From a bacterium (GTDB taxonomy: Bacteria; Patescibacteriota; Minisyncoccia; Phycocordibacterales; UBA1006), in NCBI GenBank assembly GCA_037144045.1, contig JBAWXN010000001.1:1387-65386 (forward strand): a DNA stretch of 64,000 bases. Reading direction: 5' to 3'. Both the position numbers and the translations under genes were made by a program. The notes below the pieces were generated by a model, which saw nothing but the letters and a program-made list of their open reading frames with translations, was not told where the DNA came from and did not search any database. Below are positions 4,011-32,757 of this stretch, one piece after another. Numbering within the stretch: position 1 is the stretch's first letter; each line of letters starts with the position of its first letter.

Positions 4011-4331
4011 ATGGCAACAAAAAAAGCTAAGAAAGAAGTTTCAGCTGATGTAAAACCAGTTGGAAATTCAGTGGTTATTGGTCCACGTGTTACTGAAAAA
4101 GCAGCCTACGCAAGTGAACGAAATGTATTTGTATTTAACGTTGCAATGGATGCGAACAAAATTCAAATCAAGCAAGCGATTAAAGAACTCTACAAAGTAA
4201 CTCCTATCAAAATTGCAATTGTGGTTACCAAACCAGAAGTTGTAGTTTTCCGAGGAAACCTTGGTAAAAAATCAGCATTCAAAAAAGCGTACGTAACCTT
4301 GAAAAAGGGAGATACGATTGACCTGAACTAA
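4011..4331 (+). CDS. rplW: 50S ribosomal protein L23
   Basis: size, position after rplD and KAAYASERNVFVFNVAMDANKIQIKQAIKELYKV match L23. Confidence 0.9.
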   Translation: MATKKAKKEVSADVKPVGNSVVIGPRVTEKAAYASERNVFVFNVAMDANKIQIKQAIKELYKVTPIKIAIVVTKPEVVVFRGNLGKKSAFKKAYVTLKKGDTIDLN

Positions 4332-7665: not shown

Positions 7666-7790
7666 TCTTAAGTTTTAAATGTTTGGTAATATAATTCTTA
7701 ATCATAATAACAGACTTATTAAAAAAGTCAAGTGAGTACAGGGTCTTTTAGAACGAGATTAACTATAGGTCGCATTTCCCAAGGAACCCC

Positions 7791-7819
7791 TTGACAAAAA
7801 AACTTAAAAATGCTTTAAT
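7791..7819 (+). promoter_or_regulatory. candidate promoter (TTGACA -17- TTTAAT) for the flotillin-like gene
   Basis: consensus -35 with a weak -10, about 190 nt upstream of the ATG at 8009 in the divergent intergenic region. Confidence 0.3.
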
Positions 7820-8008
7820 AGCCCGGAATGGTTCGTTGAACACTCGTGATTTTCTGTGCCTTATAGGTACACAAACTCACCGAACATGATTTACCGCTTG
7901 CTTTAGCAAGGTTCATCACTCAGGTAATCAGAGCTGATCACTCTTAGAAAATGGTCTGGTATCATTGCACCAGAAGCAATAAATCTTCAAAACATCAATT
8001 AATTTTAG

Positions 8009-10387: not shown

Positions 10388-10420
10388 GTTAATAATTGAA
10401 TACTAGTGCTCACGCACGGA

Positions 10421-10452
10421 CCCGTTCCAATTTGGAACGGGTTTTTTATTTT
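10421..10452 (+). terminator. intrinsic terminator after the flotillin-like gene (cccgttcc-aattt-ggaacggg + T-run)
   Basis: 8-bp stem then TTTTTTATTTT. Confidence 0.65.
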
Positions 10453-10460
10453 ATAACATG

Positions 10461-10496
10461 CAAAAAATAAACCCTGTCGCAATGACAGGGTTTTTG
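10461..10496. terminator. bidirectional intrinsic terminator (A-run, ccctgtc-gcaat-gacaggg, T-run)
   Basis: 7-bp stem flanked by AAAAAATAA upstream and TTTTT downstream; serves the convergent minus-strand gene ending at 10507. Confidence 0.6.
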
Positions 10497-10506
10497 GGTA
10501 ATTAAA

Positions 10507-12303
10507 TTATGACCAGAACATATACCAAGGCTTAGGATAGAATGATGCAAGTTTTGTTACTACTTTTGCCCACTCAGTACTTCTTCTTGGAAATAATTCA
10601 AGTAACGCCTCACATGGTTGTGGTTGACGCGCATTGGATAATTCCGATTCAAGTAATGTGCAGGCACGTTTGTAACATAGAACAGCATATTCTGATTCTG
10701 GAGGAAATAAGTACATTTGCTTCATTGCTACAGCTACAGTGCTGTATTTTGAAATTTTATGTTTTGTTTCCTCGTCTTGTAGGCGTAATTCGTTCATTTG
10801 CTTATTACGTAACCGTTCTTCCTCTGCGGGGTCGGTTGCTGGAGCTTCTTCTGTTACTACAAGAGGAGCAATGACTACAGGTTGAACCGCTGCTGGGGTA
10901 GATTGAGTTACTTTCGGTCCAAAGCGTTGTGCGAGGCGATACATGGCGAACGAGGCGTCTCTGATGCGGTAATCGCGCGCGTCACTTTCATTAGTGAATA
11001 ACTCAACTAAACGCAAATCAAGAAGGTCTTCTTCAGTGCTTGGTGAGTCTACATAATTTTCAAAGCCGGTAAGCTCCTTCACTGATCGTGCGCGTGACTG
11101 TTCTTCTTTTAATAGTCGAGACAGTTTTGTTTGTGCAAGGTTGCCAATGTAGGTATCGGTATCAACCAGGTTATGAAGGTCATCCTTGGTTTGTATAAGG
11201 TTAACAATCCGTTCGGTAACCTGCTTTTTTAACGGATCGCCAAATTCAAGGTCCTCAAGGTGATTTTCAAGTTCAGATACATCAGTAGTTTTTTCCAGAT
11301 ACTGTGCAAGTAGTATGTGTTCACGCTTAGCAGCCATTCTGCCTATACGTGAATCGCTGCTGAATGATTCCTGGATACTACCCAAAACTTCAATAACAGT
11401 ATCAGTAAATGCATTGCACTGATTAATAGCGCCTTGGGCAAGTACTTCTTGAGCTTCAGAGCCGTCATTGAACGAATCGTGATGTTCCCAAATTTTTTCA
11501 GGATCACGTCCGCACAATTGTACGATCTGTTGAGCCAAGTAAACATTTGAATCGTCCTCTGAATCAATGAAGTCATCCAAATCGTTCACATCGTTCAGGG
11601 AACGAATATTATTGATGGCTCGTTGAACCAGTTCACGATGTTTATTCTGTACCAAGTAATATTCCAAACTGTCTTCCGAAAACACATCATTAATCAATTC
11701 GTGGGTTTCTGAAGGGGAAGTGCACGTATTAATAAGCTTCTGTGCCAAATACTGCATTGATTCCTTACGGTATGCATCGTTTTGATATAATGAAACAAGG
11801 TCATCAAAGTCCTTAGTTTCGTTAATAATGCGTTGCTCAAGGGTTTTAATCTTTGCAAAAATTGCTAACTCTTCAGCACTACCGTCAGGAGTGTATTTAT
11901 TTAACTCCTCCAAATCGTCTAAATCATCAGTCGCAGAGAGCTTTTGAGCAATAATACGTACTAATTTTTCATACGCAATGATAAATTCACCATCGGTGTA
12001 GTCGAGTTGTTCAAGGATTCCATAAAGTTCCTCAGGATCCTCCGTGTCTGCAATTTCTTGCAACGTGGTGACCCCTGGTTCTTCCTCCCATTCAGGACCT
12101 TTGTAGTGATTTTTGGGTTCTACTACCGTAGACGGCATATTTTTAGTACCTTGTTGCAGTTGGTCAAAGATAGTTACTGGTTTATCAGTTAAAAAGTAGG
12201 GTCGTTGGGACTGATAGGTCCCATCGAGTATCTTTTTCAGTTCAGACACGGAAATACCGGTATCTTCTGAAAGTTTACGTAAATGAACGTCTTTACTGGT
12301 CAT
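10507..12303 (-). CDS. hypothetical protein with an N-terminal helix-turn-helix-like segment followed by about five acidic 35-aa repeats
   Basis: N-terminal LRKLSEDTGISVSELKKIL is HTH-like. Repeats share D(L/F)DDL..L......AQKL(I/S) / YLAQ(K/Q)(L/I)(I/V) spacing; very acidic. No database family recognisable from sequence alone. Confidence 0.5.
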   Translation of the reverse strand: MTSKDVHLRKLSEDTGISVSELKKILDGTYQSQRPYFLTDKPVTIFDQLQQGTKNMPSTVVEPKNHYKGPEWEEEPGVTTLQEIADTEDPEELYGILEQLDYTDGEFIIAYEKLVRIIAQKLSATDDLDDLEELNKYTPDGSAEELAIFAKIKTLEQRIINETKDFDDLVSLYQNDAYRKESMQYLAQKLINTCTSPSETHELINDVFSEDSLEYYLVQNKHRELVQRAINNIRSLNDVNDLDDFIDSEDDSNVYLAQQIVQLCGRDPEKIWEHHDSFNDGSEAQEVLAQGAINQCNAFTDTVIEVLGSIQESFSSDSRIGRMAAKREHILLAQYLEKTTDVSELENHLEDLEFGDPLKKQVTERIVNLIQTKDDLHNLVDTDTYIGNLAQTKLSRLLKEEQSRARSVKELTGFENYVDSPSTEEDLLDLRLVELFTNESDARDYRIRDASFAMYRLAQRFGPKVTQSTPAAVQPVVIAPLVVTEEAPATDPAEEERLRNKQMNELRLQDEETKHKISKYSTVAVAMKQMYLFPPESEYAVLCYKRACTLLESELSNARQPQPCEALLELFPRRSTEWAKVVTKLASFYPKPWYMFWS

Positions 12304-12616: not shown

Positions 12617-12967
12617 ATGACACGTTCACTTAAAAAAGGCCCTTATATCGACATTAAATTGTTGAAAAAAGTAGAAGGGAAAAAGCCGCTTGAAACCGGC
12701 GTTATCAAGACTTGGGCTCGCGCATGCGTGATCTGCCCGGAAATGATTGGTTTCACATTTGGTGTACATAACGGACGCAAGCACCTTGAAGTGCTGGTAT
12801 CTGAAGACATGGTCGGACACCGCCTGGGTGAATTTTCTCCAACTCGAACCTTCCACAAACACGGAGGTAAGATGCAAAAAGAAATTGAACAAAAGGCTCG
12901 AGAATCAGAAATTGCATCAGCCAAAGCCGCTAAAGCGTCTCCAGCTGCCGCTCCAAAGAAAAAATAG
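12617..12967 (+). CDS. rpsS: 30S ribosomal protein S19 with a Lys/Ala-rich C-terminal extension
   Basis: [19 protein letters not shown]...[12 protein letters not shown]...[14 protein letters not shown]19 signature; extra 25-aa KA-rich tail. Confidence 0.93.
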
Positions 12968-12970
12968 TAT

Positions 12971-13342
12971 ATGAAAGCAGAACTTAAAAACTATCGACAA
13001 TCTCCTCGTAAGGTTCGCCTTGTGGCCGACGTTGTTCGAGGCAAGAAAGTAGCAAACGCCCTTGTGGAATTACAATTCCTCGGGAAACGAGCTGCGCTTC
13101 CATTTGCTAAATTGATTGCTTCAGCAGTTGCAAACGCTTCACATAATCACAAGACTTCATCAGAAGACCTTGTAGTAAAAAGTGTTTCTGTAACTAAGGG
13201 TCCTACATTAAAACGAATCAAACCACGGTCACGAGGTATGGCAAATCGTATTAATAAGCGAACCAGTGTTCTCAAGGTCGAGCTTGCGGTACAAGCACCT
13301 AAAAAAGCAAAATCACCTAAACCGGTTAAAGCCGCTCAATAA
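12971..13342 (+). CDS. rplV: 50S ribosomal protein L22
   Basis: MKAELKNYRQSPRKVRLVADVVRGKKV L22 signature. Confidence 0.92.
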   Translation: MKAELKNYRQSPRKVRLVADVVRGKKVANALVELQFLGKRAALPFAKLIASAVANASHNHKTSSEDLVVKSVSVTKGPTLKRIKPRSRGMANRINKRTSVLKVELAVQAPKKAKSPKPVKAAQ

Positions 13343-13344
13343 TT

Positions 13345-14016
13345 ATGTCAAAAATTGTACATCCTTATGCACATCGACTCCCTTTGATCCGAGATTGGAA
13401 ATCTCGTTGGTTTAAGATGGGTAAAGAATATCGTGATTTGCTCCGAGCAGACACATTAGTGCGAGAATATCTAGAAAAGAAACTCCGAGGAAGTTATGTT
13501 GCGGATATTGAATTCGAACGAAATCAAAAATCTACCAAGATCATGATTTCAACATCACGACCAGGTATGTTGATTGGACGAAACGGAGAAGGTGCTACTG
13601 CGCTTAAAAATGACCTTGTGAAATTCATGAAGTCTAAAGCAGTAACTCTTCCTGAAGACCTCAAAATCGACATTATTGAAGTTACCAACCCTGATGCTAA
13701 CGCTAAGATTGTCGCGTATTCAATCGCAGAAATGCTTGAGAAACGAATGACCTTCCGACGTGTTATGAAAACAACTCTTGAAAAAATCATGCAAGCGCGT
13801 GGAGTAAAAGGTGCCAAGATCGTTCTTTCTGGACGATTGGGAGGTGCTGATATGGCTCGACGTGAAGAATTGAAAATGGGAGGAATTCCACTCCAGTTCA
13901 TGCGCGCAGACGTAGATTACGCTACAGAAACGGCTCGAATGACATACGGAGGAGTTGGTATCAAAGTTTGGATTTATAAGGGTGACACACTCCTAACCCG
14001 AGCTAATCAAAAATAA
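13345..14016 (+). CDS. rpsC: 30S ribosomal protein S3
   Basis: KH domain plus S3 C-terminal domain, LIGRNGEGATALK. Confidence 0.93.
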   Translation: MSKIVHPYAHRLPLIRDWKSRWFKMGKEYRDLLRADTLVREYLEKKLRGSYVADIEFERNQKSTKIMISTSRPGMLIGRNGEGATALKNDLVKFMKSKAVTLPEDLKIDIIEVTNPDANAKIVAYSIAEMLEKRMTFRRVMKTTLEKIMQARGVKGAKIVLSGRLGGADMARREELKMGGIPLQFMRADVDYATETARMTYGGVGIKVWIYKGDTLLTRANQK

Positions 14017-14022
14017 ACCTTT

Positions 14023-14448
14023 ATGTTATTTCCAAAAAAAGTAAAACACCGAAAATGGCAAACTGATCGACGAAATCCTAACAAGAAAATTGTTGCGACT
14101 CGTGGAACAGAACTCCAATTCGGATCATTTGGACTTCGCGCACTTTCAAGTGAACGAGTTAAATCAAATCAAATCGAAGCTGCTCGTAAAGTAGTTTCGC
14201 GAACTCTTGGTAAAACAGGAAAATATTGGATTCGTATCTTCCCAGATCGACCTATTACAGCAAAAGCTGCTGAAGTAGGTATGGGTAAGGGTAAGGGGGA
14301 TCCACAAGGATTCTGTTTCGAAGTAGAACCAGGTCGAATCATTTTCGAAGTTGATGGAGTACCTGATGCAGTAGCAAAAGAAGCACTCCGCAAAGCTGGT
14401 TGTAAGCTTCCTATCAAAGTTCGTATTATCAGTCGCAACGACATGTAA
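14023..14448 (+). CDS. rplP: 50S ribosomal protein L16
   Basis: MLFPKKVKHRKWQ...RLEAARKV...EVEPGRIIFEV L16 signature. Confidence 0.93.
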   Translation: MLFPKKVKHRKWQTDRRNPNKKIVATRGTELQFGSFGLRALSSERVKSNQIEAARKVVSRTLGKTGKYWIRIFPDRPITAKAAEVGMGKGKGDPQGFCFEVEPGRIIFEVDGVPDAVAKEALRKAGCKLPIKVRIISRNDM

Positions 14449-14451
14449 TGT

Positions 14452-14712
14452 ATGAAAAAAACAGTAACTACAGAAACACAAGTAAATAAGAAAACATTAC
14501 AGGGTGTTGTTGTGTCAGATAAGATGCAAAAAACATTGGTAGTGAATGTGCAACGTTTCGTTAAAGATGCTAAGTACGGTAAGTACATGAAAATCTCTAA
14601 GAAATACAAAGCGCATTACGAAGGTTCAGATATCAAAATTGGTGACAAAGTTACCATTGTTGAATGTCGCCCACGGTCGAAAGATAAACACTTTGAAGTA
14701 ACATCAATCTAA
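14452..14712 (+). CDS. rpsQ: 30S ribosomal protein S17 (directly follows rplP; no rpmC between them)
   Basis: [33 protein letters not shown]...[20 protein letters not shown]. Confidence 0.92.
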
Positions 14713-14716
14713 TTAT

Positions 14717-15085
14717 ATGATTCAAGTAGGAACAAATGTTACCATCGCTGATAACACCGGAGCTAAAAAAGCTCGCGTGTTTAAGGTATTAGGTGGTTCA
14801 AAACGACGCTATGCGAGTTTAGGTGATGTGGTTATTCTTTCGATTAAATCAGCAGAACCTCGTAAAGCGGTTAAGAAAAAAGGAGTTCACAAAGCTGTGA
14901 TTGTTCGTCAAAAAATGGCGTACCGACGTAAAGACGGTTCGTACATTCGATTTGATGACAACGCGGTAGTGATTCTTGAAAAAGGACAAGAACCAAAAGG
15001 AGGTCGAATCTTCGGTCCTATTCCCCGAGAACTCGGAGAAAAAGGTTATCAGAAAATCGTATCACTTGCCCCAGAGGTATTGTAA
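14717..15085 (+). CDS. rplN: 50S ribosomal protein L14
   Basis: [27 protein letters not shown]. Confidence 0.93.
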
Positions 15086-15090
15086 GCTTT

Positions 15091-15306
15091 ATGATTAAAA
15101 AAGGAGACAATGTTGTGGTGATTGCTGGATCTGACAAAGGAAAGAAGGGAACTGTGGTTAAAGCACTTCCTAAGACTTCCCAAGTTGTGATTGAAGGCAT
15201 CAACATAAAGAAAAAGCATCAGAAAGCGAAAACTACTGATGGTGTTGGAAAAGTGATTGAAGTAGCTAAGCCGGTTCACGTGTCAAACGTGAAGTTGGCG
15301 AAATAA
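15091..15306 (+). CDS. rplX: 50S ribosomal protein L24 (short, KOW domain only, 71 aa)
   Basis: MIKKGDNVVVIAGSDKGKKGTVVKAL...VIEGINIKKKH KOW motif; lacks the usual C-terminal 30 aa or so. Confidence 0.88.
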   Translation: MIKKGDNVVVIAGSDKGKKGTVVKALPKTSQVVIEGINIKKKHQKAKTTDGVGKVIEVAKPVHVSNVKLAK

Positions 15307-15313
15307 TACGCAT

Positions 15314-15895
15314 ATGGAAACACTGAAACAAAAACAAGCAAGTGCCTATGATGTACTGAAAGCTCAATTCGGATACACTAATAAATTGGCAGCGCCTCGC
15401 ATCGAAAAAGTAGTAGTATCAGTTGGTACTGGTTCTGGAATGAAACGAGATCGCAACAAGAATGACTTCGTTATTGATCGTTTAACAAAAATTGTGGGTC
15501 AAAAGCCTTCAGTAAAATCTGCTAAACAATCAATTGCATCATTCAAAATTCGTCAAGGTGATCCAGTTGGAGTGGTAGTTACCCTTCGTGGTGAACGTAT
15601 GTGGTCATTCTTGGATAAATTGGTAAACGTGGCATTGCCTCGAACTAAGGACTTCCGAGGAATCACACGATCATCTGCGGGTGATCTTGGTAACATGACT
15701 ATCGGTATTCGTGAACATACGATCTTCCCAGAAACATCTGATGAAGAAATTTCACAAGTATTTGGTCTTGCTATCACTATCGTGACTACGGCAACTTCTC
15801 GACCAGAAGGTCTCGCATTCTTTGAATATCTTGGATTCCCTCTTAAGAAGGAAGACGAGAAAAAAGCAAAGCGAACTCGAAAACGAGGAAAATAA
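15314..15895 (+). CDS. rplE: 50S ribosomal protein L5
   Basis: LKQKQASAYDVLKAQFGYTN...PRIEKVVVSVG...FRGITRSSAGDLGNMTIGIREHTIFPE. Confidence 0.93.
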   Translation: METLKQKQASAYDVLKAQFGYTNKLAAPRIEKVVVSVGTGSGMKRDRNKNDFVIDRLTKIVGQKPSVKSAKQSIASFKIRQGDPVGVVVTLRGERMWSFLDKLVNVALPRTKDFRGITRSSAGDLGNMTIGIREHTIFPETSDEEISQVFGLAITIVTTATSRPEGLAFFEYLGFPLKKEDEKKAKRTRKRGK

Positions 15896-15902
15896 CAAAT
15901 TG

Positions 15903-15923
15903 CTACCGAAAGGTAGTTTTTTG
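15903..15923 (+). terminator. intrinsic terminator directly after rplE (ctacc-gaaa-ggtag + TTTTTT)
   Basis: tetraloop hairpin plus T6; ends the r-protein transcript before the rest of the spc genes would normally follow. Confidence 0.7.
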
Positions 15924-15952
15924 TTTTGGTAAATTTACGATATACTAGACTC

Positions 15953-18900
15953 ATGAAATTTTTTATACGAATCCTAATACTAGGAATGTTCTTTGTAACT
16001 GCTCACACTGCTTTTGCAGCTACTATTACCGTAAATACAACAACTCCTGGAATAGTAAGTGATGGAGAGTGTTCATTGTCAGAAGCGATTAATAACGTCA
16101 ATGGCAACAATGATACTTCAGGGGGAGATTGTGCATCCGGAGAAGCTCTCCCTGTTGTTGATCGTATCGAATTTGCAATTCCTGGTGCCGGTCCACACAC
16201 CATAGCAACCAATGCCCAGTTTGGGATTATGGAGGCTGTAGTTATTGATGGAACAACACAGCTAGGTACTGCGTGTCCTCTCGAAGGAGGACTGCGTCAG
16301 CTTCAGATTAACATTGACGGAGGGGGTATTTCTTCTTCGTCTAATATTTTTGATATTCCTCCTGGAGCAAACAACGTAACTATTAAGGGGTTAGCAATTT
16401 ATGGAAACGTATTTGGATCAGGTATTACTACGCAAGCAAACAATACTACGGTTCAATGTACAAACATCGGAACTGATAGTGATGGTTTAGTCGCGCATCC
16501 TAACTTGTATGGAATCAGTATTTATAATAACGGATTAGTGGCTACCTCTGGACATATATTTGGTGGTCCCAATCCGGGAGATGGAAATCTTGTCTCAGGT
16601 AATAACGTGACCAATTCAGGTAGTTTTTTTGACGGTACGGGTATTACTTGTTCGGCAAGTAATGTTTTGATTCAGGGAAACTGGATTGGAATTGATAGTA
16701 CGGGTCAGTCAATTCTAGCAAACAAAAATACAGGTATTCAGTGTGGTAATTCTGGTTCAGAGTTGATTACTTACGAGAATATTCAGATTCTCGACAATGT
16801 TATTTCTGGTAATGGAACAACGGGTGGTCAAAGTTTTTCTCCAGGTATTAATATTGGAGGTGCTGAAATTGGGGGAACCAACGAATTAATTACTAATTTG
16901 GTAATTAAAAGAAATATCATAGGTCTATCTGCTGATGGTTTGACTGCTATTCCCAATGAAGGCGATGGAATTTTTGTAGGAACTACTTCTTCTGCAGTGA
17001 CTATTGGTGGAATTGGTGATGGAAATATTCTTTCAGGGAACGGGGGGAACGGTTTAACATTGGGGTATGATGTTTCAAATATTCAGGTGCTAGGAAACAC
17101 TATCGGATTAAATGCTTTGGGTCTGGCCGCTATTCCTAATAGCCTGCAAGGTATTAGTTTTTCCCCACCCCTCTTTGTGGGTGGTGGTACTGTAACCAAT
17201 GTTACTATTGGAGGAACAAATATCGGAGAGGGAAATACGATTTCTTGCAACAACTCTGGCGGTATCAATATTCCTGCAAATACTAGTAATATCTCTATTA
17301 TCGGGAATACAATTGGTCCCAATAGTAGCGGACAGAATTGCGATACAGGATTACAAAGCGTTGGAATTTATGCTACTGGTACAACCAATCTTACTATTGA
17401 CGCTAACATAATTAAATATCGGTATCTAGCAATACGGATGTATGCACTTGGTGGTTCGTCCGCGATAAAAAATAATACTATTACAGACAACAATACGGGT
17501 ATTTCAATTGTTTCTTCTTCAACAGTCAATCCCATGGTGAGTGTTACGGGAAATAGTATTACAAATAATACTAATATGGGTATTGATCTTTCAATAGATG
17601 CGGACGACAATGGTGTCGGCGACAATATAGGAATTCAAAATACAAATGATATCAATGACACGGACAGTGGGCCAAATAATTATTTAAATCATCCTGTTGT
17701 TCTCATGACGTTACAAAATGGGGCAGATACGAGCGTCTTGTATGGGCTTGATGTCCCCGTGGGATACTATCGGGTAGAATTTTTCATCAACCCAACCAAC
17801 GGAGTAGATGCATCCGGATATGGAGAAGGAGAAGTATATAAAGGATTTTCAGTTATTACGAAATCAGCTTTGGGTTTTGAAACCTATAGCAAGATATTAA
17901 CGAATACAAATCTGAATGATGGTGTAACGGCGACAGTTACCGAATGTACTGATGCGTCTTGTACGAACTATATTGGCACTTCAGAATTTTCAAACACTGC
18001 ACCTCCAGGAGTTGACTACGATGCAACTGATTATACAGCGTCACACGTACTTAATACGGTTTACTTGGGTGCCTGTGTAAACGGTGATAATGGATCAAGT
18101 AGTAATACTGATGCCGATGGTCCCAATCAGGCTGGTGCGTATTTGGGTACGGGGCCGTGTATTGATGACCGAGATGGTGTAGTATTTGGTAGTTCGACTT
18201 CTGGTGGTATTACCCCAGCGTCAATATCTGGAGTCACTCTGTTTTCACAAGGTGGTGATTTTAGTGGAGCACTCAATGATATGACAGTTTCAGGAACATA
18301 TACGGGTGCGGATCATGTGAATGTGTTAGTTTTGATATTCTCTGTTTCTCCTGGGAATTCAGACGATGCAGATTATTTCCTTCCAGTGTTTAACATAGGA
18401 AGTGACTATTTAACTGGTTCTCCTACTAAAATTACTCCAGGAATTCCACAATCAATTGGATCAGGCGTATCTATCATGTTTCAAAATGGTACTGGTCACA
18501 CAGCATTTGATACTGGCTCAGGCACAGGTCCAGTTTTAGTTTTTAGTGCTAATAGTGAGAGCGAAGCATTTACTTTTACTCAAAATACGGGAACATTTCT
18601 TCCTGGAGCTACTACTGCTGTCCAAACTACCGCATCAGCAAATGGATATGTACATGTATGGTTAGATAGTAACAACGATGGCGATTTTCTAGACACGGGG
18701 GAACAGGTTGTTGAGAGTACTATCATAACTTCTGGAGAACATATTGTTAATTTTACTGCACCGATCCAGGCGGGAACCTATCCTGTACGGGTGCGGTATA
18801 CTTCATATGAAGATACCAATCTTGGTCCGACAGGACTTGCAAATGATGGTGAAGTAGAAGATTATCAACTTACGGTAGCTGTCCCGGTTTCTACTGCAGG

Positions 18901-19312
18901 AGGGTCTACGGGGTATCTTCCAAGGCTTGCATTTAAACCGGTTACAGTGCCGGCAGGTGTTTCATCAAATAATTCAGCAGAAGATATTTTGGGTTCAGGT
19001 ATCTGTTCAACAGAGCTTATTATTAAAGATCTTATGAAACAAGGAGATAGAAATGGTAAATATGGTGCTTATAATAAAAAAACAGTGAAAGACGTGAACC
19101 TTCTTCAAGTTCATATTAATCGAATACTTGCCGCCCAATACAACCAGGCAGCAGGTCCAACGGATGGAATTTTTGGAAAACTCACTAAGCGCGGGGTGGA
19201 ACGGTTGCAAACTGCACTCAATAGTTTCCTAAAGCCAGCACCAAAACTGAAAATAGATGGTGTTGTGGGTCCTTTTACTCGAGATGCGATTAATAATAGT
19301 TGTGGTAAATAA
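15953..19312 (+). CDS. giant secreted right-handed parallel beta-helix repeat protein with a GEVED domain and a C-terminal PG_binding_1-type peptidoglycan-binding domain
   Basis: Signal peptide MKFFIRILILGMFFVTAHTAFA. About 20 PbH1-like repeats (N..I.GN.IG.....G). ...DGEVEDYQLTV (GEVED motif). C-terminal LLQVHINRILAAQYNQAAGPTDGIFGKLTKRGVERLQ...IDGVVGPFTRDAIN resembles PG_binding_1. Confidence 0.7.
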   Translation: MKFFIRILILGMFFVTAHTAFAATITVNTTTPGIVSDGECSLSEAINNVNGNNDTSGGDCASGEALPVVDRIEFAIPGAGPHTIATNAQFGIMEAVVIDGTTQLGTACPLEGGLRQLQINIDGGGISSSSNIFDIPPGANNVTIKGLAIYGNVFGSGITTQANNTTVQCTNIGTDSDGLVAHPNLYGISIYNNGLVATSGHIFGGPNPGDGNLVSGNNVTNSGSFFDGTGITCSASNVLIQGNWIGIDSTGQSILANKNTGIQCGNSGSELITYENIQILDNVISGNGTTGGQSFSPGINIGGAEIGGTNELITNLVIKRNIIGLSADGLTAIPNEGDGIFVGTTSSAVTIGGIGDGNILSGNGGNGLTLGYDVSNIQVLGNTIGLNALGLAAIPNSLQGISFSPPLFVGGGTVTNVTIGGTNIGEGNTISCNNSGGINIPANTSNISIIGNTIGPNSSGQNCDTGLQSVGIYATGTTNLTIDANIIKYRYLAIRMYALGGSSAIKNNTITDNNTGISIVSSSTVNPMVSVTGNSITNNTNMGIDLSIDADDNGVGDNIGIQNTNDINDTDSGPNNYLNHPVVLMTLQNGADTSVLYGLDVPVGYYRVEFFINPTNGVDASGYGEGEVYKGFSVITKSALGFETYSKILTNTNLNDGVTATVTECTDASCTNYIGTSEFSNTAPPGVDYDATDYTASHVLNTVYLGACVNGDNGSSSNTDADGPNQAGAYLGTGPCIDDRDGVVFGSSTSGGITPASISGVTLFSQGGDFSGALNDMTVSGTYTGADHVNVLVLIFSVSPGNSDDADYFLPVFNIGSDYLTGSPTKITPGIPQSIGSGVSIMFQNGTGHTAFDTGSGTGPVLVFSANSESEAFTFTQNTGTFLPGATTAVQTTASANGYVHVWLDSNNDGDFLDTGEQVVESTIITSGEHIVNFTAPIQAGTYPVRVRYTSYEDTNLGPTGLANDGEVEDYQLTVAVPVSTAGGSTGYLPRLAFKPVTVPAGVSSNNSAEDILGSGICSTELIIKDLMKQGDRNGKYGAYNKKTVKDVNLLQVHINRILAAQYNQAAGPTDGIFGKLTKRGVERLQTALNSFLKPAPKLKIDGVVGPFTRDAINNSCGK

Positions 19313-19313
19313 A

Positions 19314-19333
19314 AAGCACCTACGGGTGTTTTT
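19314..19333 (+). terminator. intrinsic terminator (gcacc-tac-gggtg + TTTTTT)
   Basis: short GC hairpin plus T6 after the stop at 19312. Confidence 0.55.
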
Positions 19334-19392
19334 TGACTTACAGGAACGATTTTAGGTATAATAATCCTGTTTATCAAGATAACTAAAAAAAT

Positions 19393-20394
19393 ATGAAAGA
19401 AGCAATATCACTCGGTTCTGGTGCAGGAAACGAACAATTTAAACATACTCAAGACGGCAAAAAGTATTTATACGAAAAAGATGGTACTTTTTATGGAGGT
19501 GATTATATGGACGAACCACCGCAAGAACTTTTTATCGATGTTGGTTCGGCACCAGCAAGCCCTGCAAAATCATATCGCGAAATTGGTGCAGCTAACCGTG
19601 CAGCATTTAATGAAAAAATCGAGAAGAAAAAAACTTGGTTGAGTGGACTGTTTTCACGGTTTGGATCTAAAGTTAAAGATACTAAAGAATCAGCAATAGA
19701 TCATGCTTTTGCAACACGCCAGATGGCAGCTGATGGATATGAAGCAGTAGACAAGGGGATTCAAAAGATGGAAGACAAGATTGTATTTGGAAGTGAGGTT
19801 GCAGGTCGCGCAGCAGAACTTGCGGGTGCGTATGCAGCATACAAGGCCAAGGAAGGAATGGCTTCAGCTAACAAATTCATTGATAATCGTATTGTGAATC
19901 CTATTGATGCAAAAGTGCAAAAATTAGATGCGTACGTTGATAAAAAATGGGAACAAGGAAAAAACTATGCAGAACTTAAAAAACAACAAGGAGCTGCATG
20001 GATGAAAGACAAGGCGGAAACAGCTGCTGCAGTAGGAATTATTGGAGGATACATTGCAAAAGGGGTTGCAGGATCAATTAAAGAAGGATTCACTCAAAAA
20101 GTTGCAGAAGCGAAAGAAAAAGTTTCTCAAGGATATGAAAATGTTCTGGGAATGGGAGCTGCTGCTATTGCATCTGCTGAACAAAAACGAAAATCGTTGA
20201 TTTCTGGAGCGCGCGATAAATGGAACCAGATTCAACTCGGTTTCCTTAATCGACAACTTGCTAATGAACGAGCAAAAGCAGAAATGGCTCGAGAAGAACT
20301 CGAATCACGAGAAGCTAAAGCAAAGCTTATTGAACAAAAAATGGCACTTCTTAATACAGACTTCGTGGGGAATGCTCAGGAAGCAACTGCATAA
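19393..20394 (+). CDS. hypothetical Ala/Lys-rich helical protein
   Basis: long ORF with periodic A/K/E composition (apolipoprotein/LEA-like helices), no TM helices, no recognisable motif. Confidence 0.45.
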   Translation: MKEAISLGSGAGNEQFKHTQDGKKYLYEKDGTFYGGDYMDEPPQELFIDVGSAPASPAKSYREIGAANRAAFNEKIEKKKTWLSGLFSRFGSKVKDTKESAIDHAFATRQMAADGYEAVDKGIQKMEDKIVFGSEVAGRAAELAGAYAAYKAKEGMASANKFIDNRIVNPIDAKVQKLDAYVDKKWEQGKNYAELKKQQGAAWMKDKAETAAAVGIIGGYIAKGVAGSIKEGFTQKVAEAKEKVSQGYENVLGMGAAAIASAEQKRKSLISGARDKWNQIQLGFLNRQLANERAKAEMAREELESREAKAKLIEQKMALLNTDFVGNAQEATA

Positions 20395-20399: not shown

Positions 20400-20774
20400 A
20401 TGACAATACAAGAACTCATTCAAAAAATTACAGACAGTGTCCTTTCAGAAAGTGCTAAAAAGCAGATTATTGACCTTGCGGGTACTTATTCTGAAGTAAC
20501 TCCTGACCTTGAAGACCAGGTAAAAGCACTTATTCAAGAAGATATTGATCGCGACTTGGCTGCGCTTGGAGCTGACGAAAACAGTCCTGAAATTCAGGCA
20601 GTCCAAGCAGAACTCGAAGCTGGTTTGGCTGAAGTTGATGCTGAACTTGATCAAGATATGACCTATGTAGACCAAGAACTTAAAGAGCTTGATGCTATGC
20701 GCCTTGAAATTACTCGAGCCGAAGAAGCGCTTAAAATTGAACAATTACGGAATGATTTGACCGCTGGGTCATAA
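20400..20774 (+). CDS. hypothetical acidic coiled-coil protein
   Basis: 124 aa, very acidic, starts 6 nt after the upstream stop (likely co-transcribed). Confidence 0.4.
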   Translation: MTIQELIQKITDSVLSESAKKQIIDLAGTYSEVTPDLEDQVKALIQEDIDRDLAALGADENSPEIQAVQAELEAGLAEVDAELDQDMTYVDQELKELDAMRLEITRAEEALKIEQLRNDLTAGS

Positions 20775-22047: not shown

Positions 22048-24198
22048 ATGAACCGAGATTACCCATTGGAAAAGACACGAAACTTTGGAGTTATTGCCCA
22101 CATCGATGCGGGTAAAACAACTACTTCAGAACGTATTTTGTTCTACACCGGAATGTCCCACAAAATTGGAGAAGTGCATGAAGGTGCAGCAACCATGGAC
22201 TGGATGGAACAAGAAAAAGAACGAGGAATTACTATTACGTCAGCAGCGACGACTTGTTTTTGGACGCCTACTTATGTGGCAGACAAAAAAGACACTGCTA
22301 AAAAATTCCGATTTAACGTAATCGATACCCCAGGTCACATCGACTTTACTATTGAAGTACGACGATCACTCCGCGTGCTCGACGGTGCTCTCGTAGTATT
22401 CGACGGAGTAGCTGGAGTAGAACCTCAATCAGAAACTAACTGGCGTTATGCCGATGAAGGAAAAGTTCCTCGCATTTGTTTCATTAACAAACTCGACCGA
22501 ACAGGAGCTTCATTTGAACGTTCATACGCATCTATTCTTGATCGTTTGACTAAAAGTGCGGTTCGATTCCAAATTCCAATTGGTGAAGAAGAAAAAATGG
22601 AAGGAGTAGTAGATCTTTTGAAAATGAAGGCGTACTATTTCGAAGGAAACATGGGAACTGATGTGATTGAAAAAGAAATCCCTGAAAATCTTAAAGCTGA
22701 TGCTGAAAAGTATCATGCAATCCTCGTTGAAAAAATCGTTGAACACGATGAAACTATGATGATGGAATTCCTTGATGGGAAAACAGATTTCGATATTGAA
22801 GCTCTTAAAAAAGTAGCTCGAAAAGCAACCATTGCGAACGATATTGTTCCTGTATTTGCAGGAACAGCGCTTAAAAATAAAGGGGTACAACTTGCACTCG
22901 ATGCGGTGGTAGATTATTTGCCAGCACCGACAGATTTGAAAGATAACAAAGGGGTTAATCCAGATACTGGAGCAGAAGAAACCCGAAAAGCATCAGATAA
23001 TGAACCGCTTTCTGCGCTTGCCTTTAAAATTGCAACGGACCCATTCGTAGGACAATTGGTATTCTTCCGTGTCTATTCAGGTACGCTTGAAGCAGGTTCA
23101 TATGTGTTAAACACTCGAACAGGTAACAAGGAACGTATTGGACGTATTTTGCGAATGCATGCCAACGAACGTGAAGAAGTGAAAAAGGTGTTTGCAGGGG
23201 AAATTGCTGCAGCAGTAGGACTTAAAGAAACTACTACTTCAGACACGCTCTGTGACCCAGCTCACCCAATCGTTCTCGAAGAAATCAAGATTCCAGAACC
23301 AGTAGTAAGTCTTAAGATTGAACCAAAAACAAAGGCAGACCAAGAAAAAATGGGTATGGCTTTGAACCGATTGGCAGCAGAAGACCCAACCTTCCGAGTA
23401 ACTACTGATCCTGAAACTGCAGATACTATTATCTGGGGAATGGGAGAACTTCACTTGGATATTATTGTGGATCGTATGAAGCGAGAATTTACCGTTGAAG
23501 CAAACGTGGGACGACCACAAGTAGCTTACAAGGAAACCATTACGGGAACTGCTGAAGTGGATAACAAATATGTTAAACAATCAGGAGGTAAAGGACAGTA
23601 CGGTCATGTTAAAATCCGTATCAAGCCTATGGACCTTACGGTAGATCCAGCTGATCTTCCTAAGAACACGAAGCGTTCAGAAGGATTTGAATTCATCAAC
23701 AACATTAAAGGAGGGGTTATTCCACAAGAATTTATCGCTCCTGTTGAAAAGGGATTGAAAGAAGGAATGCAGCGAGGTGTCCTTGCTGGATACCAAATGG
23801 TAAACATTTCAGCGGACTTGTTTGATGGGTCATACCACGATGTAGACTCAAGTGAAATTGCCTTTAAGGTTGCAGCGTCACAAGCAATGCAAGAAGCGCT
23901 TGCGAAAGCGTCTCCGGTTATCCTTGAACCGATGATGAAAGTTGAAGTAACCATCCCAGAAAAATTCTTGGGAGATATTACCGGAAACGTATCATCTAAA
24001 CGTGGAATGATTGAAGGGGTAGACGATCGAGGAATGGTGAAAGCGGTTCGTGCGATTATGCCACTTTCAGAAATGTTCGGATATATGAACTCACTTCGAT
24101 CAATGACCGAAGGACGAGGATCATTCACTATGGAATTTACCCGTTATGACATCGTTCCTAAGAACGTTGCTGACGAAATTATTTCAAAGCGAAAATAA
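22048..24198 (+). CDS. fusA: elongation factor G
   Basis: [20 protein letters not shown]...DTPGHIDF...NKLDR G-domain plus full-length EF-G domains II-V. Confidence 0.95.
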
Positions 24199-24268
24199 TC
24201 CTGCCTCGCGTAAAGCTACGCAGGACACAAAATTTCCCATTGGGGGATTTTTTGTTACACTTATAAAT

Positions 24269-26656
24269 ATGACATTTGGTCGGAAAACTCTTTTTTCTGT
24301 TATTACGATTCTTTCAATCATTGGATATGGTTTTGTAGTTTTTGCGGTGGCACCAGTTGGAGGATATACTCCTGCTCAAACATTAAATCCTGCATGTGCA
24401 CCAGGTGATATTGATTGTGTGGTTCAAATGGCGGTAGTCATTGGGTCTTCTGTGATAAGCGGAATGCCGAATCAGGTGCTCTATACTGATACGGATGGTA
24501 AGGTTTTTGGTGATTCACAATTTACTCGTGACTCGACAACAGGAAATACAATTATTGGTGTGGCAAATGGGGTAGTTGCTTCGAATATGAGTATTTTGAA
24601 TACAGGGAATGTGCTCACTTGGGACGCAGATGTGAATGATTCAATCACAGATGGACTCATTCAAGGAAATAACCTAAATGGAGTTGGGATAAAAGGAAGT
24701 GCATTGGCTCATAGCAATACATCAACTTTTGAGTCAGCATCTTTCTTTGCTGGAGACACTACTGCTGTTGGTGGTAATCCATATGAAGCAAGTATGGCTT
24801 ATGTTCTTCCAGGAGGAATCAACGGGGCTTTTGCATATACTGTTAATGAAGAAGGATTAAAAGCAGACTACTATGATAGTGTAGGAAATATCAAAAGTCA
24901 GATTCTTCAAGAGGCAACAGGAAACACTATTTTATGGGATGCGGATACTACAGATGATATACAAGACTTGTTTGCGCAAAACCAAAACATTGGAGGTTCA
25001 CCCTTCAAAGGAAATGGTATTGCCCATGTTAATACAGCTACAGGAGAAAATGTTTATTTAGGAATTGGTGACGCAAGTGGTGTTGGGCAACGTCCTTTTA
25101 CAGGAATCATTGGATATCAAAATGCTGGTGGTACTCTTTTAAATGCATTAAGAGTGGATGATAGAGGTGCTGTAATAAGTCATCGTGACAGTGTTGCGAA
25201 TACGCAAGGATTCATGACCACATTTGGAGGTGGGAACCTGTCAGTTTGGAAGGCTGACACAACTGACACGATAATTACAAAACTTGAACAGACACAAGAC
25301 ATATTAGGACTTGGTGCTTTCTCAGGATCGGCTCTCACTTGGCAAGATACAGGTACTCAAGTAACAGGACTGGTGGGTGCTGTTGATGGAACTGGAACTG
25401 GACTTTTCCCGGGAAGTACTATTATGGCAACAACTAATGATGCATCTCTTGCGTCAGCAAGCCTTTCTACAAATTATGATACGTTAAGCTTGCAAGCAAC
25501 ACTTATAGCAAATGTTGCTAATGGGCCTGGTGATACAGGATTTGAGTTTGATAGGACGCGGGGAATTATTCGACGTAGAGACTACGGAACAGGTTTTGAG
25601 TCAGCATTTGAAGTTAATGGAAATAATGCGATCGCAAAATATACACTTAACGGTACCAATGAATACCAGACACAACTGGGTGATGGTACGTTCGCATTCC
25701 TGAATACAACTACAAATGATAAGTATCTATCGCTGGATTCAGTGTCAGGAATCATGAAGATAGCGCCACCAACAGGAGGAGATTTCGAAGTTAATACACT
25801 TACAACGAACAAAGTCGCATTTACAGTAATTCCTGATAACTTCTATGTGAAAATGGGAGATGGTGATAATGTTGCAAATCATACGTCATTGACAGTAGAC
25901 GACGCTTCACAAGCAATTACATTTGGTTATACTGGAAGTAGTTATACTTTCCCAGTTGGTGACGGTACTACTAACTACCTTCTTGCAACGGATGGCACAG
26001 GACAACTTTTCTGGCAAGATCCAACGATGGTCCCATCGGATCGATCACTCAAATCAAACATAGGTGGATTGTCGTATGGACTTGATACGTTAATGCAATT
26101 AAATCCAGTGTCTTATACCATGAATTCAAGTGGTAAAGAACAAATTGGATTCATTGCCCAAGAAGTAGAATCGTTAGTGCCAGAGCTGGTAGGGGAAGTT
26201 GCAAATGGTAAGAAAGGATTAGCCTACGGACAGATGACAGCAGTGATTGTAAAATCAGTTCAGCAGCTCAATTTGAAAATAGTCAACATTGAAAACTTTG
26301 CTGACGCTGAAAACAAAACATTCTTGAATAATTTGATTGCGTGGTTAGGTAGTGCAGCTAACGGTCTCGGAAAATTATTTGCCGGTGAAGTAGAAACAAA
26401 AAAACTTTGTATTGCTGACGATACAGGGAGTACTACGTGTATTACTAAATCACAGTTAGACGAATTTCTTACTCATCAAAATAATAGTCCAGGATCGAGT
26501 GTTGCACCTATTCCGCCTTTGGATAATCAGGGTGACAACTCGATACCAGTTCCAGGTCCAGATTTAGTATCTGATTCAGTACCAGAAACAGGACCAGGTC
26601 CACTACCTGTCGCACCAGATCCAATATCTGATCCGGTAATTGAAGAGGTTAATTAA
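24269..26656 (+). CDS. secreted fibre-like protein with a conserved N-terminal module and a C-terminal Peptidase_S74 / intramolecular chaperone (CIMCD-like) domain and Pro-rich tail
   Basis: Signal peptide ...IGYGFVVFA|VAPVGGYTPAQTLNPACAPGDIDCVV. C-terminal DRSLKSNIGGLSYGLDTLMQLNPVSYTMNSSGKEQIGFIAQEVESLVPELV (Ser/Lys dyad context) then WLGSAANGLGKLFAG..KKLCIADDTGSTTCITKSQLDEFL. Start chosen at ATG 24269; the ORF-track start 24146 overlaps the fusA 3' end. Confidence 0.7.
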   Translation: MTFGRKTLFSVITILSIIGYGFVVFAVAPVGGYTPAQTLNPACAPGDIDCVVQMAVVIGSSVISGMPNQVLYTDTDGKVFGDSQFTRDSTTGNTIIGVANGVVASNMSILNTGNVLTWDADVNDSITDGLIQGNNLNGVGIKGSALAHSNTSTFESASFFAGDTTAVGGNPYEASMAYVLPGGINGAFAYTVNEEGLKADYYDSVGNIKSQILQEATGNTILWDADTTDDIQDLFAQNQNIGGSPFKGNGIAHVNTATGENVYLGIGDASGVGQRPFTGIIGYQNAGGTLLNALRVDDRGAVISHRDSVANTQGFMTTFGGGNLSVWKADTTDTIITKLEQTQDILGLGAFSGSALTWQDTGTQVTGLVGAVDGTGTGLFPGSTIMATTNDASLASASLSTNYDTLSLQATLIANVANGPGDTGFEFDRTRGIIRRRDYGTGFESAFEVNGNNAIAKYTLNGTNEYQTQLGDGTFAFLNTTTNDKYLSLDSVSGIMKIAPPTGGDFEVNTLTTNKVAFTVIPDNFYVKMGDGDNVANHTSLTVDDASQAITFGYTGSSYTFPVGDGTTNYLLATDGTGQLFWQDPTMVPSDRSLKSNIGGLSYGLDTLMQLNPVSYTMNSSGKEQIGFIAQEVESLVPELVGEVANGKKGLAYGQMTAVIVKSVQQLNLKIVNIENFADAENKTFLNNLIAWLGSAANGLGKLFAGEVETKKLCIADDTGSTTCITKSQLDEFLTHQNNSPGSSVAPIPPLDNQGDNSIPVPGPDLVSDSVPETGPGPLPVAPDPISDPVIEEVN

Positions 26657-26739: not shown

Positions 26740-28272
26740 GTGAAAATTCTAAAAAACAAAAAATTAGCAGTCGCAATGAGTATTGCATCTGTAATCGGTT
26801 ATGGAACACTTGCTTTTGCAGTTGCGCCAGTAGGGGGATACATTCCAGGTCAAACCCTTAATCCTACGTGTACTCCTGGAAGTACAGACTGTTCAGTTGC
26901 ATCAGCGTGGAGTATTGATACGGTGAATGAACTAATTAGTAATAATTTTAATAACATAACCATAGCGGGAAATACAGAGTTACTTGGAAACACAACATCC
27001 CTGAATGAATTTTCAGGCTCACGCTTTGGCATAATTCAAAATGGACCCAGCACAACTCTTGGAACAAGTGCTTTTGAGAACGGGCTTAACTTACGTTTTA
27101 TTGACGATCAGAAATCAGCTGGTATTTTTATGGGTGATTTAAGTGGACTCCTTCCTGGTAATACGAATACTATTTATATAAATAATACTAACGATGCTAC
27201 CGGTGATTCTGCATATGCATTTTTTAATGCAGATGGTAGTCTCATGCTCGCAGCCCAAGATGCAAACAAGCATTCAAATATTAATGTTTTTAAACAAGGT
27301 TTCAGACTTCGTCATGCAGGTGGTCCGGATAGTAGTCCAACGGGTGATTGGCATTCCCGAATAGATATAGAAGACAATCGAGTGCTAAGTACGTTTCAGA
27401 GAGGTGGTGGTACTGATCCAGGAGTAACACTCACTACTTGGACAGAGACACAATTAGATGAAAACGGGTTTGCTATAAAAGGAATTGATGATAGTGGCCT
27501 CAATCAAGCGTTTTTAGTTAAAAATAACACTGGATTACAAGCGTTGCGTGTCATGAACGATGGTGCGGTACGTATCGGAGCCCTTGCTGGAGGCATCTGC
27601 CCACTCGAGGTAGATGTGACGGGTACTATTATTTGTAGTACTCCTTCCGATGCAAATCTTAAGCATGATATTACTGATTTATCCTATGGACTTGATACTA
27701 TTATGAAACTGCGACCGGTTTCGTATCAGTATAACGATGCAAAATACGGATCAGGAAACCAGATTGGTTTCGTGGCTCAAGAAGTTCAAGAAGTTATTCC
27801 GGAAGTAGTATTCAGAAGTCAGGGACACTTGGGAATTAACTATGCATTACTTACATCAGTTAACACAAAGGCGATTCAAGAACTTGAACTAAGGCTCACA
27901 GCTCTCGAAGGGGTTGCACAGTCAGTTAACAGTTCAGGACTCTCGCTGATTCGTAATTGGTTAGCAGATGCAACCAATGGAATTACAGAAATTATTGCTG
28001 GAAAAATATCTACTCATGAATTATGTATAGATGGACAATGTCTCACAAAAGACGATGTGCAGCAATTACTCATATTAAAAAATCAATTACAGAATACCGA
28101 ATCCATCCCTCCGAGTAGTGCCAGTACTCCAGTAGAAACCCCAAGTCCTGCTGATGTGCTGCCAGAGGTGGTACTAACTACCGAAAGTTCAACCGAAATA
28201 ACACCAGACGAGGGAGTAACTCCCGATGCTACACCAGAAACAGGTACGAGCAGTGATACGGTAGCGAATTAA
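26740..28272 (+). CDS. paralogous secreted fibre-like protein with the same N-terminal module and a C-terminal Peptidase_S74 chaperone domain
   Basis: ...IGYGTLAFA|VAPVGGYIPGQTLNPTCTPGSTDCSV. C-terminal SDANLKHDITDLSYGLDTIMKLRPVSYQYNDAKYGSGNQIGFVAQEVQEVIPEVV then NWLADATNGITEIIAG...CIDGQCLTKDDVQQL and a Pro/Thr-rich tail. Confidence 0.7.
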   Translation: MKILKNKKLAVAMSIASVIGYGTLAFAVAPVGGYIPGQTLNPTCTPGSTDCSVASAWSIDTVNELISNNFNNITIAGNTELLGNTTSLNEFSGSRFGIIQNGPSTTLGTSAFENGLNLRFIDDQKSAGIFMGDLSGLLPGNTNTIYINNTNDATGDSAYAFFNADGSLMLAAQDANKHSNINVFKQGFRLRHAGGPDSSPTGDWHSRIDIEDNRVLSTFQRGGGTDPGVTLTTWTETQLDENGFAIKGIDDSGLNQAFLVKNNTGLQALRVMNDGAVRIGALAGGICPLEVDVTGTIICSTPSDANLKHDITDLSYGLDTIMKLRPVSYQYNDAKYGSGNQIGFVAQEVQEVIPEVVFRSQGHLGINYALLTSVNTKAIQELELRLTALEGVAQSVNSSGLSLIRNWLADATNGITEIIAGKISTHELCIDGQCLTKDDVQQLLILKNQLQNTESIPPSSASTPVETPSPADVLPEVVLTTESSTEITPDEGVTPDATPETGTSSDTVAN

Positions 28273-32750: not shown

Positions 32751-32757
32751 TATTATT

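Follow-up and report, generated by a model that had tools for sequence, protein, structure and literature searches.

We analysed a 64,000-nucleotide (nt) stretch of a patescibacterial genome (GenBank assembly GCA_037144045.1, contig JBAWXN010000001.1, positions 1,387 to 65,386; hereafter the window) and focused on the gene directly behind rplE, whose product, here called the fibre protein, combines an export signal, a long beta-helix, a split GEVED unit and a peptidoglycan-binding domain. The open reading frame (ORF) lies on the + strand, as do the features described below except where noted, and runs from 15926 (TTG) or 15953 (ATG) to 19312. The ATG form, of 1119 amino acids (aa), is the one deposited at NCBI (MEI8223509.1, ‘MAG: GEVED domain-containing protein [bacterium]’), and full-length orthologs with 44–75% identity likewise support a coding sequence at 15953..19312, stop codon included. 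A first-pass annotation made from the sequence alone had described a giant, signal-peptide-bearing protein of this length; the length and the signal hold up, and ‘giant’ overstates 1119 aa. It had also thought of an episymbiotic or parasitic bacterium with a small genome; the organism belongs to the ultra-small Patescibacteria or Candidate Phyla Radiation (CPR), and its GyrA is 82% identical to a ‘Patescibacteria group bacterium’ sequence and 67–68% identical to Candidatus Pacebacteria sequences; the closest species-representative genome with a fibre homolog is a Candidatus Nomurabacteria genome. Blastp against six-frame ORFs found no paralogs of the fibre protein in the window, and the gene shows no DNA-level tandem repeats, flanking direct or inverted repeats, or mobile-element signatures.

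An AlphaFold2 model built from a 50-sequence alignment (mean predicted local distance difference test (pLDDT) 81.8, predicted template-modelling score (pTM) 0.66) arranges the protein as a cap, a beta-helix, a sandwich, a loop-rich stretch, two further sandwiches, a disordered linker and a three-helix C-terminal domain. Ahead of these, the N-terminus, MKFFIRILILGMFFVTAHTAFA followed by ATITV, forms a classical Sec signal; the protein contains no further hydrophobic stretch. The signal peptide read from the sequence spans aa 1–22 (15953..16018), with cleavage predicted after AFA, and the AFA-ATITV cleavage region is kept in all orthologs. The N-terminal cap (aa 23–69, 16019..16159), delimited by alignment, the TIGR04214 profile and a model helix at 42–51, contains a CSLREA-like motif, DGECSLSEAINN, and the conserved residues Cys40 and Cys60; AlphaFold2 renders it as a short element with a helix on SLSEAINN. 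DGECSLSEAINN aligns over the full NCBIfam TIGR04214 CSLREA_Nterm profile, positions 1–27, with 8.6 bits (cut-off 25), whereas the homologs P0032 and P0034 are certified CSLREA members at 49–60 bits. The cap is CSLREA-like, not a certified member of the family.

The beta-helix that the first-pass annotation proposed is well supported. Pfam PF13229 Beta_helix matches the whole protein with 36.2 bits (E 5.8e-9, cut-off 25.9), Foldseek matches the region to beta-helix structures, and AlphaFold2 models a continuous right-handed parallel beta-helix over about aa 70–548 (16160..17596) with pLDDT mostly above 90; PF05048 also matches, as discussed below. Self-similarity of the protein is strongest at a 23-aa period, which over ~480 aa of helix gives ~21 coils, so the earlier estimate of about 20 repeats was reasonable. 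The helix is followed by an acidic junction (aa 549–581, 17597..17695) whose motif, N565-D566..D569.D571.G573.N575...N579.P581, is at least 96% conserved in 50 homologs and, judged by its residues, may form a metal (Ca2+) site. A seven-stranded beta-sandwich at about aa 582–685 (17696..18007; pLDDT 83–96), also marked by conservation and modelled over aa 582–676, comes next and ends in a conserved TSEFS motif; a marginal match of this sandwich to cadherin-23 (E 0.6) was not used. The fibre protein has 14 cysteines, which can be grouped in sequence order into seven candidate pairs. Ten of these cysteines are invariant across the eight orthologs; the C-terminal pair is missing only from P0003, an ortholog with a swapped anchor (see below). 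Such sequential, conserved pairs suit an extracellular protein. Net charge is −65 for the ectodomain and +8 for the C-terminal peptidoglycan-binding module.

Downstream of the TSEFS sandwich lies a GEVED unit that is interrupted by a second domain. Pfam PF20009 GEVED matches aa 899–974 with 60.8 bits when the whole protein is scored (cut-off 24.4), and the motif NDGEVEDYQLTV occupies aa 964–975, confirming the earlier GEVED call and its motif. By tblastn comparison, GEVED in unrelated genomes occurs in tandem units of ~160 aa, each with an Asp/Gly-rich loop N-half (DxGDAP...LGxCVDxExDG...DDEDGV) and a beta-sandwich C-half ending in GEVEDY. A custom hidden Markov model (HMM) of 163 positions, built from 106 such tandem units, matches the fibre protein in two pieces: positions 21–74 at aa 693–752 and positions 69–163 at aa 881–975. 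The contiguous ~160-aa unit is not present; its halves are separated by 128 aa, a split common to eight of eight orthologs. The N-half (aa 686–752, 18008..18208), identified by the custom HMM and by conservation, is loop-rich and Asp/Gly-rich, contains Cys708 and Cys736 and is the best-conserved region of the protein; AlphaFold2 models aa 686–760 as loop-rich with low confidence. The C-half (aa 881–975, 18593..18877) is a beta-sandwich, modelled at about aa 887–975, that ends in the GEVED motif and is backed by the PF20009 match, 79.6 bits with the custom HMM and pLDDT of 85–90.

The domain nested between these halves (aa 753–880, 18209..18592), delimited by alignment, hhalign and AlphaFold2, is the most variable region of the protein, with 26–44% identity among orthologs compared with 55–82% in its flanks. 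It is predicted to be a beta-sandwich (about aa 762–877). A Pfam search of aa 690–900 placed no family on it, and a fold search with the C-terminal model returned only weak, generic immunoglobulin/fibronectin type III (Ig/Fn3)-like and carbohydrate-binding-module-like sandwiches. A tblastn hint that the insertion is a degenerate second GEVED unit was rejected, given that the HMM yields no extra match and hhalign assigns a probability of 0.2%, marking the two domains as unrelated. Among 1.84 billion cluster representatives, the insertion domain has 12 matches only. The genuine ones are orthologs or paralogs sharing an insert–GEVED–PG_binding_1 cassette; DARPin/ankyrin matches of the insert profile are spurious, reaching 2–5 bits per stretch with totals that come from summed repeats. 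The core of the domain, ~95 aa long, recurs as three tandem copies in one further match, P0166, a 750-aa type-IV-pilin-like protein with an N_methyl motif that is encoded outside the window. The conserved pattern of the module is ND..SG.Y.G...PQ.L..G..(V/L)TF....GH, and what P0166 and the fibre insert have in common looks like an undescribed extracellular domain family. A domain nested inside GEVED is the one uncommon structural feature of the fibre protein.

The C-terminus carries the only anchoring module that we found. A flexible linker rich in Pro, Ser, Thr, Gly and Val (aa 976–1017, 18878..19003; pLDDT 30–47 at aa 981–1006, low conservation) leads into a basic module (aa 1018–1119, 19004..19309) that consists of an extension and a PG_binding_1 three-helix domain, as delimited by HMM, alignment and AlphaFold2 (helices at 1041–1062, 1076–1092 and 1107–1115). 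On the isolated C-terminal 110–120 aa, PF01471 PG_binding_1 scores 27.8–28.3 bits (cut-off 23), and the family is found in eight of eight orthologous C-termini (best E 7.5e-10), in line with the first-pass assignment. Searched against the PDB, a profile of the orthologs matches only the peptidoglycan-binding domains of 1LBU, the Zn D-Ala-D-Ala carboxypeptidase of Streptomyces albus, and 7RUM, a phage endolysin. The motifs DGIFGKLT and DGVVGPFT align to both structures, which share the DGxFGxxT...DGxxGPxT motif and the three-helix bundle; in the fibre protein, by contrast, the domain is C-terminal to a long, apparently non-catalytic fibre and has a conserved N-terminal extension. Conserved Cys1018 and Cys1117 bracket the module and may form a disulfide that closes this extension. 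The fibre protein contains no LPXTG motif and no second hydrophobic segment, a Pfam search found no SLH domain, and there is no other membrane anchor. Peptidoglycan synthesis genes occur in relatives, with Ddl and a Mur ligase encoded on L001 and L003 (L-numbers denote loci of relatives; P-numbers denote homologous proteins).

Homologs retain the helix and vary the anchor behind it. SLH domains are found in P0012–P0016 and P0036, a type IX secretion system (T9SS) C-terminal domain in eight homolog matches, and a near-threshold LPXTG motif in P0032 from Candidatus Saccharibacteria. The GEVED-then-PG_binding_1 ending recurs within the Patescibacteria, in a 968-aa paralog on L001, a 1366-aa Nomurabacteria protein, P0009, P0011 and P0017. 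Even one ortholog departs from the common arrangement: P0003, which is 67% identical and whose C-terminus maps to L001 13007–13372, carries a different, more canonical PG_binding_1 variant and lacks the Cys-bracketed extension common to the other orthologs, indicating that the anchor was swapped within the orthologous group. Interchangeable anchors at the same position provide the strongest argument that the C-terminus is the cell-attached end.

The fibre gene has transcription signals of its own. rplE ends at 15895 and the fibre gene starts 57 nt later; between them, scans identified a hairpin resembling an intrinsic terminator (GCTACC-GAAA-GGTAGT) with a T-run after the rplE stop (15902..15927; dG −10.9 kcal/mol, z −3.7), which would end the r-protein transcription unit, and equivalent hairpins lie behind rplE in L084 and L086. 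A −10-like box, TATACT, stands 6 nt before the ATG with no Shine–Dalgarno sequence (15941..15946; scan and ortholog comparison). A TATAAT, TATACT or TATAGT box 6–8 nt before the ATG and behind a T-run is found for the window gene and for all six orthologs examined, whose upstream regions and genes otherwise differ. A second terminator-like hairpin with T6 directly follows the stop codon (19313..19334; dG −9.3 kcal/mol, z −3.75), and a hairpin with a T-run also lies 3′ of the gene in most orthologs examined, clearly so in L084, L086, L087 and L003. The flanking terminators and the gene’s own −10 box indicate a separate monocistronic unit rather than a part of the rplE transcript and, to go by these sequence signals, the fibre mRNA is probably leaderless as well as monocistronic. 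The first-pass annotation had treated the gene as an insertion directly after rplE within the spc operon. The location is right, and the downstream spc genes are not in the window, but the position is conserved in relatives, which does not fit a recent insertion, and bracketing by terminators with a separate −10 box argues against operon membership.

Shine–Dalgarno-like cores precede 4 of 61 window genes, near chance level, which suggests that Shine–Dalgarno-independent, partly leaderless initiation is widespread in this genome. About ten window genes have a −10-like box 4–10 nt before the start codon, including ligA at 43664 and a prfB-like gene at 52742. The codon adaptation index (CAI) of the fibre gene is 0.546, compared with 0.62–0.80 for ribosomal proteins (r-proteins), and codon adaptation gave no sign of very high expression.

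Orthologs in related genomes recur at comparable positions. The gene occupies the rplE–rpsL gap in L084, L086 and L088, lies between nusG and rplK in L001 and downstream of rpmG in L087, and is found elsewhere in L002 and L003. Accessory genes are shuffled in the rplE–rpsL gap, including homologs of the 333-aa and 124-aa genes that follow the fibre gene in the window. Recurrent placement at breaks in translation-gene clusters is the one uncommon genomic feature of the family. In three relatives, an orphan gene for a secreted protein of 388–409 aa with the motif DSMGMCGDQ lies directly upstream of the ortholog (L084 5312–6478, L086 7262–8443, L001 8692–9921); the protein matches no Pfam family and has only 8 relatives among 5.8 billion proteins. 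Despite the many close relatives revealed by GyrA, only ~10 fibre orthologs were found. Divergence of the fibre protein is also at odds with that of the r-proteins: r-protein identities put L086 (93% for L5 and for S3) nearer to the window than L084 (83% for L5, 88% for S3), whereas the order is reversed for the fibre protein, which is 75% identical to the L084 ortholog and 55% identical to that of L086. This incongruence fits either a rate shift or allele exchange and is what would be expected of a diversifying or exchanged surface protein. Synonymous sites are likely saturated at ~77% nucleotide identity.

On balance, we consider it more likely than not that the fibre protein sits on the cell surface as a non-enzymatic fibre, anchored non-covalently to peptidoglycan, and serves as an adhesin or in recognition. 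The three domain calls and the signal peptide make a wall-anchored surface protein the best reading, as the first-pass annotation had proposed; from the architecture we infer binding to the cell’s own wall, orientation and adhesive function. After cleavage of the signal peptide behind AFA, the basic PG_binding_1 module would bind the cell’s own peptidoglycan, and the disordered linker, of roughly 30–40 residues, would cross the wall. Three stacked beta-sandwiches (the TSEFS sandwich, the nested variable domain and the GEVED sandwich) would then form a stalk, from which the acidic ~21-coil beta-helix would point outward, tipped by the Cys-stapled CSLREA-like cap. The beta-helix fold usually rises 4.8 Å per coil, and the helix would be roughly 100 Å long. 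The most likely role of such a fibre would be adhesion to, or recognition of, a host cell or surface, with the hypervariable nested domain and the helix surface as candidate specificity determinants. The host-attachment role suggested by the first-pass annotation is plausible. For comparison, multiple adhesins are needed for epibiotic growth of a saccharibacterium (PMC10633639). The extracellular PG-binding-domain proteins that parasitic Paceibacteria express at high level (PMC10936435) also fit this reading.

Several points weigh against this interpretation. Adhesion is argued from architecture only, and PG_binding_1 scores 20.0 bits, below the cut-off of 23, when the whole protein is scored; the domain could also bind a host wall instead of the cell’s own. 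The beta-helix is the fold of many carbohydrate-active enzymes too, and a lineage-specific active site may be present. The low CAI indicates that the fibre is probably not a very abundant protein. Finally, the orphan partner gene of the three relatives is missing from the window and gives no functional clue.

Two known groups of surface proteins invite comparison with the fibre protein. Secreted proteins with CSLREA and right-handed parallel beta-helix repeats (TIGR04214, PF13229), such as P0032, likewise have a signal peptide and a Cys-containing cap (C-S-L-x-E-A), the same GNxIG / IxGN coils and ND..D.D.G.N junction, and a TSEFS beta-sandwich after the helix. The fibre protein differs from them in the subthreshold score of its cap, its PG_binding_1 anchor and its GEVED unit split by a nested domain. 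One example of the class is a type II secretion substrate in Acinetobacter baumannii (bioRxiv 10.1101/2022.02.01.478765); no member has a demonstrated function, so the comparison yields no mechanism. The GEVED domain takes its definition from CshA, a fibrillar adhesin in which it was described as a stalk or partner domain (PMC10952558). Like the fibre protein, CshA and CshB of Streptococcus gordonii have a signal peptide, GEVED beside a variable, possibly ligand-binding domain, and a C-terminal wall anchor, and in overall logic both CshA and the fibre join a distal binding part through a stalk to an anchor. In contrast to CshA, the fibre protein lacks CshA_NR2 (Pfam, aa 690–900), CshA repeats and LPXTG, its PG_binding_1 anchor is non-covalent and its distal part is a beta-helix. 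The fibre protein combines known modules and belongs to a known class of surface proteins, and its database entry already names the GEVED domain.

A bolder version of the anchored-fibre reading, which we regard as unlikely, would see the gene as a cassette that an episymbiotic CPR bacterium can exchange and that determines host specificity. The fibre would be leaderless and constitutive, its nested domain, a module common to the pilin-like protein, would set host range, and the conserved translation-gene flanks would act as homology arms by which one strain’s allele replaces another’s. Such exchange would resemble capsule-locus swapping between conserved flanking genes.

Equally unlikely, in our view, is a wall-tethered polysaccharide-active enzyme (a lyase, hydrolase or epimerase) that would cut or modify host capsule, extracellular polysaccharide or wall polymers in the manner of a tailspike, an option that the first-pass annotation had offered beside an adhesin. 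PG_binding_1 is typical of wall-degrading enzymes (PMC10936435), two tail-fibre-like proteins are encoded 5 kb downstream, and the best structural neighbours of the helix are beta-helix enzymes and tailspikes: the HK620 (4XLC) and Fri1 gp49 (6C72) tailspikes, AlgG (4NK6), DFA-IIIase and polygalacturonases. These neighbours, however, are 8–15% identical with template-modelling (TM) scores up to 0.47, so that only the generic beta-helix fold links the helix to lyases and tailspikes; the top PDB fold match, 8WM1 (‘DHS dehydratase’), likewise shares the fold only. No lyase, hydrolase or tailspike family, including polysaccharide lyases and glycoside hydrolases such as GH28, matched in Pfam, NCBIfam or PHROGs even when permissive E-values were allowed, and a profile of the helix alone found no sequence relative in the PDB at E ≤ 10. 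Across the family alignment of 50 sequences, the helix body contains no conserved catalytic Asp/Glu/Arg/Lys set, and nearly all of its columns that reach 70% conservation are G, N, I or S. Conserved helix residues are thus structural repeat positions, and conserved acidic residues gather at the junction behind the helix instead, which argues against a conserved catalytic function. Compared with pectate-lyase-superfamily enzymes and tailspikes, which share its fold, the fibre protein also has no trimerisation or particle-binding domain.

Rather improbable is a structural envelope protein, either S-layer or S-layer-associated, that would cover the cell and have no specific partner to bind. The nearest non-orthologous homologs of the fibre protein combine SLH with GEVED (P0012–P0016, P0036), the ectodomain is acidic, S-layers are reported in Patescibacteria, and S-layer proteins that combine a beta-helix with interchangeable anchors are known (bioRxiv 10.1101/2024.05.28.596244). 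Viewed singly, P0012, P0013, P0014, P0016 and P0036 are 32–39% identical over 33–56% of the query; GEVED is matched in P0012, P0013 and P0016, and P0014 and P0036 have Beta_helix without a GEVED match. They differ from the fibre protein in their SLH triplet, which binds secondary cell-wall polymers, in their greater length of ~1140–1520 aa and in coming from other lineages. A coat protein is further disfavoured by a CAI that lies below those of r-proteins and of the two small genes next to it, by the small number of orthologs despite many close relatives, by the incongruent divergence and by the lack of an SLH domain in the fibre.

A released protein whose PG_binding_1 domain binds the host wall, making the C-terminus the attack or attachment end, is quite improbable. 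It would suit the lack of a covalent or membrane anchor, and methanogen-parasitising Paceibacteria highly express extracellular PG-binding-domain proteins of unknown function that are proposed for host attachment (PMC10936435); these proteins, compared by description only, are of the same phylum and type as the fibre. Homologs, however, hold self-anchoring modules (SLH, T9SS C-terminal domain, LPXTG-like) at the PG_binding_1 position, and the PG-binding module is among the most conserved parts while the distal parts vary, contrary to expectation for an end that contacts the host. A NosD-like role in the periplasm, as an accessory protein handling copper or another cofactor, is effectively refuted by family cut-off and gene context: NosD PF05048 scores 16 bits on the whole protein and exceeds its cut-off of 23.6 only on the isolated helix segment (27.1 bits), TIGR04247 reaches 7.8 bits where 300 are required, and no nosZ-, nosF- or nosY-like neighbours occur in the window or relatives, so the match reflects a shared repeat rather than orthology.

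The translation-gene cluster around the fibre gene (833–24198) is fragmented. Its order is tuf; rpsJ–rplC–rplD–rplW (rpsJ 2272–2562, rplW 4071–4325); rplB (5110–5958); three unrelated genes (6064–12303); rpsS–rplE (12617–15895); the fibre gene and two small genes; and rpsL–rpsG–fusA, with terminator-like hairpins at breaks of this str/S10/spc cluster. rpsN, rpsH and the remaining spc genes are not in the window. Nor is rpmC (L29), by tblastn of the window with Escherichia coli and Bacillus subtilis L29; it may have been lost or may lie in another part of the genome. The rplP–rpsQ gap is only 3 nt (14448–14452), with no rpmC between, and the same holds in L084 (3752–3756) and L086 (3578–3583). 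The unrelated genes between rplB and rpsS encode a 792-aa SPFH/Band-7 protein (8009–10387) and two large proteins without a family (6064–7665 and 10507–12303, both on the − strand); in L084, rpsS directly follows rplB.

Behind the fibre gene, a strong promoter-like site (TTGACT-18-TATAAT) at 19333–19362 precedes the 333-aa (19393–20394) and 124-aa (20400–20774) genes. Their products match no family and are apparently without signal peptides, and their CAI values of 0.72 and 0.68 are at r-protein level; the L086 homologs (27% and 52% identity) occupy the rplE–rpsL gap. After fusA come proteins of 836 aa (24146–26656) and 510 aa (26740–28272), both with Peptidase_S74 and both matching phage tail-fibre PHROGs. 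No other phage genes lie near them, and they may be further cell-surface fibres; in its listed form the 836-aa ORF shares 53 nt with the end of fusA, and its true start may be later. Farther along, a complete type IV pilus locus (30379–43644) comprises pilM, pilN, pilO, pilB, pilT, pilC, a prepilin peptidase and ~8 pilin-like genes, and a single ORF at 60288–61193 joins NusB and NUDIX hydrolase domains in an unusual fusion.

The fibre protein leaves current understanding unchanged. Its recurrent breakpoint position and conserved leaderless promoter layout offer a small, checkable observation on the organisation of reduced genomes, and its family illustrates cleanly how anchors are swapped on a common beta-helix scaffold, the versions being SLH, T9SS C-terminal domain, LPXTG-like and PG-binding. 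Patescibacteria are thought to live attached to hosts, and very few of their attachment molecules are known. With a defined anchor, a stalk and a small hypervariable domain, the fibre protein and its ~10 orthologs are concrete, testable candidates for such attachment.

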